Source: Eledone cirrhosa (Eukaryota). From it: a stretch of DNA of 64,000 nt. Positions 26,971-30,713 of the stretch are shown here, in pieces. A model generated the notes under the pieces. It was not told where the DNA came from, ran no database searches, and saw only the letters and a program-made list of their open reading frames with translations. The first letter of the stretch is position 1; every line of letters starts with the position of its first letter. Where the stretch lies: NCBI GenBank assembly GCA_964016885.1, contig OZ024745.1, positions 68,200,001-68,264,000 on the forward strand, read 5' to 3'. The translations under genes and the position numbers were made by a program.

Positions 26971-27058
26971 GCCCTTACCGCGGTTTCATATCCCAAACAA
27001 ATAGATAATCCAAGCAAAATTACATTGAGAAAGAGATCATCGTCAGAAGGCTTTTCTC
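26971..27058 (-). ncRNA. Long-P2 type I hammerhead, canonical core, predicted pseudoknot (family G)
   Basis: GAGAAAa-GCCUU-CUGACGA-ugAUCUC-UUUCUC...GUAAUUU(ugcuu)GGAUUAU...GGGAUau-GAAA-CCGCGG-UA-AGGGC. Confidence 0.8.
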
Positions 27059-27600
27059 TCTCGGAGAATATAAAATTCCCGAGTTCAAATTACAAACTGG
27101 CGCCATTCCAAACTGACTCAGAATGAGAGCAAATGAATGATAAAGCAGTTTTGTCATGGTACCGTGTGCAAAGGCAAAAAGCACGGTGGACAGGTCATTC
27201 TGTACTTCCAAAAATAGCAGCCATTCAAACGACCAAGGGTTTCTCTACCATTGAGGAGGATAATAATAAAAGTATGTGTTCCTACATGTAATTAATACAC
27301 ACAGGGACACATGAAAAGTCCGACCATATGCCATATATATATATATATATATATATATATATATATATATATATATATATATATATATATATATATATAT
27401 ATATATAGAATTTAGTATATCTACTAACAAATGCGTACAGATGTACTCTAATGCTAGCAAATACACAGATTATGTCATAGTACCTAGGTGGTTCAATGCA
27501 GGAGGATGCAGAACAATAATATAAAAGACGTAAAATAAGAAAATTTAAAAAGATTTTTTTTTTTTAAATTTAAAAAATTAACTTACTTACTAAAATTTTC

Positions 27601-27682
27601 ACTCCAACTAATTAGTTTCTGCAATGGGATAAAGACAGTTACGCAATATAACTGTCGAGAATTCATTGCGTCATCAGGGAGT
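27601..27682 (-). ncRNA. Long-P2 type I hammerhead, canonical core (family B)
   Basis: ACUCC-CUGAUGA-cGCAAUG-aauucuc-GACAGUUA(uauugcg)UAACUGUC-uuuaucc-CAUUGCa-GAAA-CUAAUUAG-UU-GGAGU. Confidence 0.85.
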
Positions 27683-28008
27683 CTATTCTCAGCTAAGTCT
27701 CCAGGCAATGCGCGGACACTGGGGACTCATATAAAAATAATAATAATTCGGTAGATGGAACAGCTAGCGGGGACTGGATTCCATGCACTGAAAAGCTCGC
27801 TGTCTCTGGTCAAATGGCAGATTCTAAAGAATCAATCACGTGACACTGAGGCTAGTCGGTAGGAGTGGGATGGTAAGATGACAGAAGCCTACTATCACAC
27901 CAATAAATTAGTAGTGGTTTTGGCAGGTTTGCTATTTCCTATCCACTGAATTATTTTATAATAAGTTTCCAGTGTCCTCGCTTTGCCTGGAAACTTACAT
28001 GAGAATAG

Positions 28009-28091
28009 ACTTTCCTGACGACGGAATGCTTCTCCATATTATTCTTCGGAAAATATATTTACTCCATTCCAGAAACTAATTAGTTGGAAGT
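28009..28091 (+). ncRNA. Long-P2 type I hammerhead, canonical core (subfamily B')
   Basis: ACUUUC-CUGACGA-cGGAAUG-cuucucc-AUAUUaUUC(uucg)GAAAAUAU-auuuacuc-CAUUCCa-GAAA-CUAAUUAG-UU-GGAAGU. Compensatory changes relative to family B. Confidence 0.85.
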
Positions 28092-28382
28092 GATATTTTA
28101 GTAAGTAAGTTAATTTTATAATTTTCTTATTTTACGTCTCTTATATATATATATATATATATATATATATATATATATATATATATATATATATATATAT
28201 ATATATATATATATATATATATATATTAAAATAACAGATTAAAGTTTAAGCAAAGAATCGGTGCTTTCACCCTTAACGGGATCTTGTGAAATAAAAAAAA
28301 ACAATCTCTGAACGCAGAAGTAAATATTTCGAAAAACGTTGCAACCGAAGGAAAACAGGAGGATATTATTTTGGTTCGTGAA

Positions 28383-28742
28383 GACAGACAGATATTATAA
28401 GTGTGCGACGTTATAGCTATGTATCTAATGCAGAGAGCCAGACGTACAGAGACATATTATAAGGGAGCGACGTTATAGCTATGTATCTATCTAAAAAGAC
28501 AGACTAAGAAAAAGAGGGGAATGTCGTATAACCGGAAGTGTTGACATTTGAACATTTTAAAGAAATGAATATTTAAATAAACGATAAAATATCTTTAATC
28601 TTTTAACGAAATTTAGAAGATAAATATGCCCTCAGTTTCTTACCTGGAAAAAGTTACATCTATGGTGCAAATTTGGTGCTTTTTGGTTCAGCCGTTTGGC
28701 GAATAGTTTGTTACATACATACAGCCGTCAGCTTTATAATAT
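28383..28742 (-). mobile_element. Non-autonomous Helitron-like fragment
   Basis: Minus start tatattataaagctgacggctgtatgtatgtaac..cggctgaacc..aaatttg resembles Helitron-type 5' ends with a tetranucleotide run. Related to 40740-40987. Confidence 0.4.
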
Positions 28743-29264
28743 ATATATATATATATATATATATATATATATATATATATGCGAGTTACATCGCATAATA
28801 TTCATTTTAACTCTTTATGACAACACAAAAACTGTGTACGCGTGCGAGTGCGTACAACACGTGCAACAATGTCCCTGGTAGTCTAAAATGTTTCGTGAAC
28901 AAGCGAATCTACATGTTATCTACAGTGAAATACAATGAGTGACAAAGCTCTCTCATTTGAATTACGGGTACTCCCCACTTTTGCCAGCTGAATAGAGCGG
29001 AGCAACGTGAAATATAGTGTTTTACTCAAGGTGACAACCTACCACTGGTTATCGAACTCACAACGTTACGTGCCCATCGCTCCATTAATCAAAACACACA
29101 CACACATATACCCCCCCCCCCCCCACACACGCATATATATATATATATATATATATATATATATATATATATAAATATATATATATATATATATATATAT
29201 ATATATATATATATATATATATATATATATATATATATATATATATATATATATATTTATATAT

Positions 29265-30713
29265 ATAGAATTTAGTATATCTACTAACAAATGCGTACAG
29301 ATGTAAGCTAATGCTAGCAAATACATAAGTTATGTCATAGTACCTAGGTGGTTCAATGCAGGAGGATGCAGAATGGAATCCAGTCCCCGCTAGCTGTTCC
29401 ATCTACCGAATTATTATTATTTTTATATGAGTCCCCAGTGTCCGCGCATTGCCTGGAGACTTAGCTGAGAATAGACTCCCTGATGACGCAATGAATTCTC
29501 GACGGTTATATTACGTAACTGTCTTTATCCCATTGCAGAAACTAATTAGTTGGAATGAAAATTTTAGCAAGTAAGTTAATTTTTTTAATTTTTTTAAAAA
29601 ATTTTCTTATTTTACGTACTTCATATTATTGTTCTGCATCCTCCTGCATTGAACCACCTAGGTACTATGACATAACTTAAGTATTTGCTAGCATTAGCGT
29701 ACATCTGTACGCATTTGTTAGTAGATATACTAAATTCTCTATATTTATCTTCAAATTATTTATTTGTTGAGCAAACCTGCCAAAACCACTACTAATTCAT
29801 TGGTGTGGTAGCAGGCTTCTGTCATCTTACCATCCCACTCCTTCCGACTAGCCTCAGTGTCACGTGATTGATTCTTTAGAATCTGCCATTTGACCAGAGA
29901 CAGCGAGCTTTTCAGTGCATGGAATCCAGTCCCCGCTAGCTGTTCCATCTACCGAATTATTATTATTTTTATATGAGTCCCCAGCGTCCGCGCATTTCCT
30001 GGAGACTTAGCTGAGAATAGACTCCCTGATGACGCAATGAATTCTAGACGGTTATATTACGTAACTGTCTTTATCCCATTGCAGAAACTAATTAGTTGGA
30101 GTGAAAATTTTAGTAAGTAAGTTAATTTTTTGAATTTTTTAAAAAAAGTTTCTTATTTTACGTCCTTCATATTATTGTTCTGCATCCTCCTGCATTGAAC
30201 CACCTAGGTACTATGACATAACTTATGTATTTGCTAGCATTAGCGTACATCTGTACGCATTTGTTAGTAGATATACTAAATTCTCTATATTTATCTCCAA
30301 ATTATTTATTTGTTGAGCAAACCTGCCAAAACCACTACTAAATCATTGGTGTGGTAGTAGGCTTCTGTCATCTTACCATCCCACTCCTTCCGACTAGCCT
30401 CAGTGTCACGTGATTGATTCTTTAGAATCTGTCATTTGACCAGAGACAGCGAGCTTTTCAGTGCTTTGGTATTCAGTCCTTGCTAGCTGTTCCATCTACC
30501 GAATTATTATTATTTTTATGAGTCCCCAGTGTCCGCGCATTGCCTGGAGACTTAGCTGAGAATAGACTCCCTGATAACGCAATGAATTCTCGACGGTTAT
30601 ATTACGTAACTGTCTTTATCCCATTGCAGAAACTAATTAGTTGGAGTGAAAATTTTAGTAAGTAAGTTAATTTTTTGAATTTTAAAAAATTTTTTCTTAT
30701 TTTACGTCCTTCA
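29265..30713 (+). mobile_element. Tandem array of a 546-bp HHR-bearing non-coding unit (family B; retrozyme-like/non-autonomous PLE)
   Basis: Units start at ~29373, 29919 and 30465 (~2.5 copies). HHRs at 29475-29556, 30021-30102 and 30566-30647 (the last has CUGAUAA). An inverted 108-bp arm lies at 29265-29372. (TA)n on both sides. Confidence 0.88.

Follow-up and report, generated by a model that had tools for sequence, protein, structure and literature searches.

Long-P2 type I hammerhead motifs in tandem retrozymes of Eledone cirrhosa, with covariation between the 5' tail of P1 and an internal loop of P2

Nine type I hammerhead motifs with a P2 of 48-52 nt lie in a 64-kb stretch of the Eledone cirrhosa genome (assembly GCA_964016885.1, contig OZ024745.1, positions 68,200,001 to 68,264,000 of the forward strand; hereafter the window), and this locus raises the question of whether the bases just 5' of P1, the tail, pair with the loop of P2, and of what kind of element carries such motifs. 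Our analysis suggests that they are hammerheads of retrozymes in which the strand just 5' of P1 pairs with the 5' strand of the P2 internal loop as a 5-7-bp pseudoknot that would brace P1 against P2 and speed cleavage. We regard this reading as probable, with appreciable room for doubt.

In each motif P2 is made up of a basal helix, then an open internal loop and then a distal hairpin, and the elements follow one another as tail, P1 (5-6 bp), CUGANGA, P2, GAAA, a short P3, UH and P1', so that the core (CUGANGA / GAAA / UH) stands in type I order. A sequence-only reading of the window had located eight of the motifs, all of which were found where it placed them. The B copy at 27601, the G copy and every D copy are on the minus strand:

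26971..27058, minus strand: family G hammerhead; tail GAGAAA at 27053-27058, loop partner UUUCUC at 27027-27032; predicted cleavage after 26976 (GUA); copy-private changes in P2.
27601..27690, minus strand: family B hammerhead, intact; tail GAGAAU at 27685-27690, loop partner AUUCUC at 27657-27662; predicted cleavage after 27606 (GUU).
28001..28091, plus strand: family B' hammerhead, intact; tail GAGAA at 28001-28005, loop partner UUCUC at 28030-28034; predicted cleavage after 28085.
29467..29556, plus strand: family B hammerhead with one P1 mismatch; tail at 29467-29472, loop partner at 29495-29500; predicted cleavage after 29551.
30013..30102, plus strand: family B hammerhead, core intact; predicted cleavage after 30097.
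30558..30647, plus strand: ninth motif, family B hammerhead (30566-30647 without its tail); G8>A, likely inactive.
58287..58373, minus strand: family D1 hammerhead; tail CGAGUUU at 58367-58373, loop partner AAGCUCG at 58343-58349.
6348..6440, minus strand: family D2 hammerhead; G12>C and a G>A change in the tail; second unit of a 683-nt tandem.
7031..7123, minus strand: family D2 hammerhead; G12>C; pairing GAGUUU/AACCUC with a U.C mismatch.

A type I descriptor returned eight matches in the window, six of them long-P2 copies and two weak others, compared with 0, 0, 0, 1 and 0 matches in five dinucleotide shuffles of the window. When P2 was folded alone, the basal helix, internal loop and distal hairpin were recovered in most of 37 representatives; several C-clade representatives among them adopted other folds. 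The differences between B and B' in P1 and P2, including the UUCG-containing distal hairpin, were as previously described. The loop strand of the 30013..30102 copy (30021 without its tail), by contrast, had been given as AUUCUC and reads AUUCUA: a C>A change at 30046, private to this copy when compared with three contig sets in which the family also occurs, brings its pseudoknot down to 5 bp. Copy-private damage to the core or P1 was found in five of the nine motifs, and the core is mutated in four (30566, 58287, 6348 and 7031), the D1 copy at 58287 carrying private A6>G and G10.1>A changes. Among the stretches that had been named for cleavage assays, 27995-28100 holds an intact copy, but 30005-30110 and 26965-27065 hold damaged ones.

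Beyond the window, we gathered 184 distinct long-P2 motifs in 71 clusters. The whole core was kept in 13 of 13 distinct genomic siblings of B, 23 of 32 of G, 15 of 26 of D1 and 17 of 23 of D2. In an alignment of 29 B-clade sequences, several of them with truncated tails (alignment A2), pairing reached 97.7% in P1, 97.7% in basal P2 (with two-sided change in two pairs) and 100% in P3; the three helices of a type I hammerhead are present, with compensatory change. P3 is only 2-3 bp long in the long-P2 motifs and is palindromic in 137 of the 184, a count biased by the search patterns used. The Watson-Crick pair expected of a hammerhead beside the core, at 10.1-11.1, is not the rule here: this position is usually non-canonical, being C.A in 51, U.U in 47, G-C in 35 and G-U in 20 of the 184 motifs. 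U.U at 10.1-11.1 is a natural hammerhead variant already described (PMC3088659, PMC7229834); no description of C.A was found in the accessible parts of the hammerhead literature.

The tail and loop strands co-vary between families and therefore likely pair. Among representatives of the 71 clusters, which include clades without tail/loop pairing, the duplex between the 11 nt before P1 and the start of the P2 loop was -4.59 kcal/mol for cognate strands, compared with -2.82 kcal/mol for swapped strands and -2.95 +/- 0.19 kcal/mol for shuffled tails; three control windows gave -2.23, -2.13 and -1.39. To control for kinship, we permuted strands within similarity groups defined without the tail and loop strands, using 127 of the 184 motifs after duplicates and microsatellite-truncated tails had been dropped. 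This resulted in p values of 5e-5 in loose groups and of 0.038 and 0.0026 in intermediate groups, with 0.20-0.87 in the control windows.

Changes on both sides of the helix were also seen within clades. A B' pattern gave 1,387 matches and none in its control, and 87 distinct places among the first 100 matches were counted by eye. Tail position 3 was G in 50 of these (partner C 48, U 2) and A in 36 (partner U 35, C 1); one place had U.U. On a tree the A-U subfamilies are nested inside G-C ones. In the B clade, pairs were counted on alignment A2 only, because the global MAFFT alignment (A1) and alignment A3 lose the register of the loop strand; here the pseudoknot helix was 77.6% paired, with two-sided change in three of six pairs (column 8-38, for instance, has GC 16, AU 6, GU 3 and other 4). 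A clade D pattern gave 3,258 matches and two in its control, and in the 69 copies analysed position 5 was paired in 59, compared with 44.7 after shuffling, its path on the tree comprising U-A, U.U, A-U and G-C. Further cognate variants are GAGAAG/CUUCUC, GGAAAA/UUUUCC, UGAAAAU/AUUUUCA and CAAAGAA/UUCUUUG. The pairing of the 6348 and 7031 copies, noted earlier as partial, contains a U.C mismatch that is subfamily-wide, the same position being U.C in 16 of the 69 D-clade copies. Overall, covariation both between clades and inside them supports the proposed tail/loop pairing, and a P1-side/P2-side pairing of at least 4 bp with covariation, the mark of a pseudoknotted hammerhead (Perreault 2011), is present, albeit weak among close copies.

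A number of results weigh against a functional pseudoknot. Within tight similarity groups the permutation gave p 0.17, 0.22 and 0.15, and the duplex test at tight similarity was not significant (p 0.07-0.09). Of 55 independent pairs, 28 favoured the cognate and 20 the swapped strand, with 7 ties (sign p = 0.16, Wilcoxon p = 0.023). The innermost pair of A2 (column 11-35) is formed in only 12 of 29 sequences. In clade D, position 6 is at chance (49 of 69 paired, 49.1 after shuffling), and position 4, where U-A/U-G changes to C-G, is not above its shuffle (50 of 69 versus 47.2) because of the D2 subfamily with U.C. Mismatches in the helix occur in amplified subfamilies (U.C in D2, A.G in G16), and the long-P2 clades with P3 CAAUUG, CGCGCG and CAUGUG have no consistent pairing although they are amplified. 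Since copies inside one subfamily are not independent, we estimate that perhaps only ~6-10 independent two-sided tail/loop changes have occurred. Nested minimum-free-energy folds of monomers are often 2-8 kcal/mol more stable than the ribozyme fold, and eight of nine predicted Xenopus retrozymes are reported not to cleave in vitro (10.64898/2026.07.22.740005). The covariation signal thus appears to sit between amplified subfamilies and to be diluted by decay among copies.

A pseudoknot of reversed polarity was considered for the CAAUUG, CGCGCG and CAUGUG clades and rejected as inconsistent. Separately, a candidate with a 38-nt P2 (L153:1530, plus strand) has a tail UUUCUC complementary to a loop GAGAAA, that is, the reverse polarity, and window positions 5790-5990 hold a decayed inverted pair of another long-P2 clade (P3 of CGAUUG type), in which P2 forms a long, irregular helix and the pseudoknot is absent.

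How might such a pairing act? The active fold of a hammerhead places P1 alongside P2 (PMC4209133). The tail would head into the junction and the 5' strand of the loop away from it, so that the two would be antiparallel and could zip from their core-proximal ends; in the register observed, pairing begins 0-2 nt past the end of P1 and of basal P2. The pseudoknot helix may then be stacked on basal P2 and under the distal hairpin, and be spanned by the 3' strand of the loop, which is U-rich in B, G, K10 and C and A-rich in D. It would take the place of the canonical loop 1-loop 2 contact, which the long-P2 motifs lack. A weak point is C.A or U.U at 10.1-11.1 in 98 of the 184 motifs; a pseudoknot of -5 to -11 kcal/mol, together with P3 dimerisation in arrays, could offset the weak 10.1-11.1 position, the weak P3 and the competing folds. 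Read-through transcripts of the arrays would be cut once per unit, probably with dimerisation through the palindromic P3, and the cut units would be circularised and then copied by the reverse transcriptase (RT) of a Penelope-like element (PLE). We infer that the pseudoknot activates cleavage; in a known hammerhead, kobs fell by a factor of more than 100 when a P1-P2 pseudoknot was disrupted and recovered upon compensatory change (PMC3088659).

The pairing could be real and yet have another role, as a switch in folding that holds cutting back until dimerisation, as an aid to re-ligation, or as a 3'-end structure for the PLE RT or ligase, possibly a triple helix with the 3' strand of the loop. 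The tail and loop strands do both remain on the 5' cleavage product, their helix can form first in transcription as a plain hairpin and dominates some minimum-free-energy folds, genomic copies reach past the cleavage site, and the 3' strand is rich in U where A prevails in the tail, and rich in A in clade D. The spacing of the pairing from P1 and P2, however, is kept tightly at 0-2 nt, as a brace between P1 and P2 would need, and we judge another role somewhat unlikely. A more specific form of this idea, in which the tail invades the P2 loop and makes a triple helix with the displaced 3' strand (A-minor or like that of an element for nuclear expression, ENE), setting the balance of cutting and re-ligation and marking the RNA for the Penelope RT, seems to us slightly less probable again; no base-by-base match of a third strand was seen, and the 3' strand of B' ignores the G-C/A-U switch. 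If it were true, dozens of compensatory variants would make the role of the hammerhead in PLE or retrozyme transposition directly testable. The complementarity might instead have been inherited as a side effect of the tail being rich in purines and the loop in pyrimidines, the ribozyme working without the pairing or not at all. Low-complexity GA and CU strands pair readily, and the non-significant covariation among close copies, the amplification of subfamilies with mismatches and the lack of pairing in other long-P2 clades are as such an account would have it. It is nevertheless very unlikely in our view, because two-sided changes occur in B', G and D amid otherwise similar sequences, the tails of clade D are non-purine and still match, and the control windows hold no such signal. 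We also rejected the idea that the 5' end of P1 serves as a splice acceptor, like that of D. virilis Penelope, since the AG is missing from D, K10 and some B copies.

The second question is what carries these motifs. They had been linked to PLEs; we found them instead in non-coding tandem units (retrozymes) and not in ends of autonomous PLEs. Units around the B and G copies of the window are:

26884..27330, minus strand: non-coding family G unit between (TA)n runs; ends approximate.
27397..27933, minus strand: family B unit, divergent from the B' copy.
29258..30716, plus strand: family B array between (TA)n runs, head-to-tail with a 546-nt period (29373-30716).
29258-29373: inverted 5' piece of the family B array.

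In the genome, long-P2 motifs lie in head-to-tail units with periods of 471-658 nt (683 nt in D2), and the longest arrays seen have seven 521-nt units. Each non-coding tandem unit carries one type I hammerhead and copies are dispersed, both of which characterise non-LTR (long terminal repeat) retrozymes. The longest stop-free stretches in two units tested were 62 and 72 amino acids, so that there is no long open reading frame (ORF). Folded as a circle, the B unit reached -139 compared with -98 +/- 7 for shuffles, and the D2 unit -145 compared with -133 +/- 6, a slight excess only. Inverted neighbours are divergent in 28 of 28 cases, and in 167 of 270 cases (TA)6 is present on each side, compared with 429 of 2000 positions taken at random, overlapping loci being counted repeatedly. 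Insertions end past the cleavage site, mostly by 64-77 or 181-213 nt in B and 77-91 or 200-212 nt in G, by 56-76 or 173-194 nt in B' and by 270-400 nt in D; because genomic copies continue past it, the copied RNA was presumably uncut or re-ligated there. The 3' ends of B, B' and G insertions fall into two classes ~115-125 nt apart, which suggests two fixed priming sites. The discrete 3' ends, divergent inversions and (TA)n targets support the view that PLE machinery may copy uncut or circular retrozyme RNA. The carriers thus fit non-LTR retrozymes, which have been proposed as non-autonomous derivatives of PLEs (10.64898/2026.07.22.740005), and are likely mobilised by PLEs.

PLEs are typified by truncated, inverted partners in divergent orientation and by (TA)n targets (PMC8557442), and the units could be mere debris of truncated pseudo-LTRs, left by an autonomous PLE with this ribozyme, and not retrozymes that propagate themselves. 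We therefore looked for PLE coding sequence near the motifs. None was found in sense within 700 nt upstream in any of the 184 motif contexts; PLE protein matches lay near six, five on the opposite strand and one downstream past a TA run. Among 17 PLE-like ORFs examined, three had a clear hammerhead behind them, all of the short-P2 type. One G-type copy (L109) has a PLE ORF 1.7 kb upstream with no (TA)6 run between the two, which favours debris but is ambiguous. In this small sample of the genome's copies, no ribozyme contiguous with an RT/GIY-YIG ORF, as in an autonomous PLE pseudo-LTR, was seen. Together with the arrays in which as many as seven 521-nt units follow one another head to tail, these results make PLE debris a distinctly improbable source. 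In the window itself, a GIY-YIG ORF at 59060-59914 (minus strand) belongs to a 5'-truncated Penelope-like element, and a (TA)n run parts it from the 58287 ribozyme, indicating a separate insertion. The 3' untranslated region of this family, in which no clear hammerhead was seen, is also found at 58390-58720 and, as two inverted copies, at 26272-26867.

The sequence-only reading had called the families unrelated. We found that B and B' form one clade and D1 and D2 another, and that the flanks of B, G and K10 are weakly alike. Flank likeness reached z 41-60 for D2-D7, 35 upstream for B-B' and 17-30 for G-G16, with weaker values of 5.6-8.6 downstream for B with G and G16 and of ~4 for K10 with G/G16; some of these z values are inflated by TA runs or neighbours. 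No downstream flank likeness was found between D and B or G. The families have the same spacing and mostly a GAG/CUC end, which, with the flank links, makes one origin likelier than recurrence; common descent of the long-P2 families thus appears the likelier history.

We compared the motifs with known systems as described in the accessible parts of the cited texts. The carriers resemble animal non-LTR retrozymes (PMC7229834; 10.64898/2026.07.22.740005; see also PMC7761336) in their non-coding tandems with a GC content of 33-37%, one type I hammerhead per unit, a weak palindromic P3, some U.U at the base of helix II and co-occurrence with PLEs. The hammerheads described there, however, have a 4-bp helix II, a short loop and a canonical or no loop-loop contact, whereas P2 here is ~50 nt with an open loop pairing with the 5' tail of P1; units are 470-690 nt as opposed to the typical ~300 nt. 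The minimal hammerheads of PLE pseudo-LTRs (PMC4209133) are likewise type I, with a P1 of 4-6 bp, a palindromic P3, likely dimer cleavage and opposite-strand neighbours 100-700 bp apart, but differ in a helix II of 6-8 bp, a small loop and a conserved G10.1-C11.1; the word 'pseudoknot' does not occur in that text. Eight Naiad 'half-core' cases with 35-50-nt spacing were left uncharacterised by Craig et al. (PMC8557442).

The Watson-Crick pseudoknot between P1 and P2 had been taken to define a hammerhead subtype. Such a pseudoknot is already established in all three hammerhead types, in ~40% of a collection that includes human C10orf118 (Perreault 2011, PMC3088659), and the motifs here share with those a P1-side/P2-side Watson-Crick helix in place of the tertiary contact. 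The Perreault text concerns terminal loop/tail pairings on a short stem II, with repetitive type I motifs outside its stem-length analysis; a hairpin-capped internal loop of a long P2 is not described in that text (its figures and descriptor file lay outside the comparison), and its supplement 11 contains no mollusc names. The pistol-like pseudoknotted hammerhead (Zhan 2024, PMC11300833), which cleaves fast, similarly has a 6-bp pseudoknot and a neighbouring strand able to form triples, but it has the pseudoknot in place of helix II, whereas the motifs here retain basal P2, with the pseudoknot on its distal side. Other hammerhead variants have been reported (PMC10085705, PMC13725137). A long-P2 type I form with an internal loop was not found in the accessible hammerhead and retrozyme literature (Lunse et al. 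2017 lay outside the comparison). On this comparison, the putative internal-loop pseudoknot is a new layout, P1-P2 pseudoknots themselves being already known.

When 29380-30700 and 20 loci were compared with Rfam, no hammerhead model matched at E <= 10, and the matches listed for the window comprised microsatellite and hairpin noise only. Rfam models thus miss these motifs, but the short-P2 hammerheads of this genome are also missed at gathering score.

The genome measures 3.0 Gb, and DNA searches yielded first-look candidates on many contigs (B 864, G 1,980, D1 1,415 and D2 1,134). Two genome-wide patterns, which require only the core, a long spacer and a P3 closed by C...G, gave 15,695 matches versus 1,020 in a reversed control and 15,957 versus 670. 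By eye, ~30 of the first 100 matches to the first pattern were an RT coding repeat and not hammerheads, and ~22 of the first 100 to the second were not hammerhead-like. In 600 kb of regularly spaced sample, the descriptor gave 34 candidates, 19 short-P2 and 3 of the long-P2 class; a profile search, partly trained on them, gave 6 of the long-P2 class. As a rough estimate, the genome may hold ~15,000-25,000 copies of the class. If active, this layout would amount to ~15,000-25,000 motifs in one genome that Rfam models and short-P2 descriptors miss, and invertebrate hammerhead and retrozyme censuses would be undercounts. If the pseudoknot does act as proposed, retrozyme hammerheads without a canonical loop-loop contact can use a Watson-Crick brace, for whose testing the families supply a natural compensatory series.

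A common RT coding stretch around the ADD motif of long interspersed nuclear elements (L156-L183 and others) mimics the long-P2 pattern and is a trap for descriptors. Viral contigs gave 15 pattern matches, only four of which had a P1 with four of five pairs, and these were taken as chance. Single hammerhead-like candidates with a P2 of 88-96 nt, two of them with a palindromic P3, were seen at L145:9006 (minus strand), L123:4108 (plus strand) and L015:453 (minus strand). Elsewhere in the window, a type I hammerhead-like motif with a shorter P2 at 3687-3745 (plus strand) resembles the typical minimal hammerhead of PLEs, and 1905-1967 and 7335-7420 (both minus strand) are type I hammerhead-like with a shorter P2 that is loop-less or has a small loop. 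The window further holds fragments of two types of non-LTR retrotransposon with RT and zf-RVT domains, at 44400-48912 and 33280-34204 (plus strand) and at 49501-52122 (minus strand).

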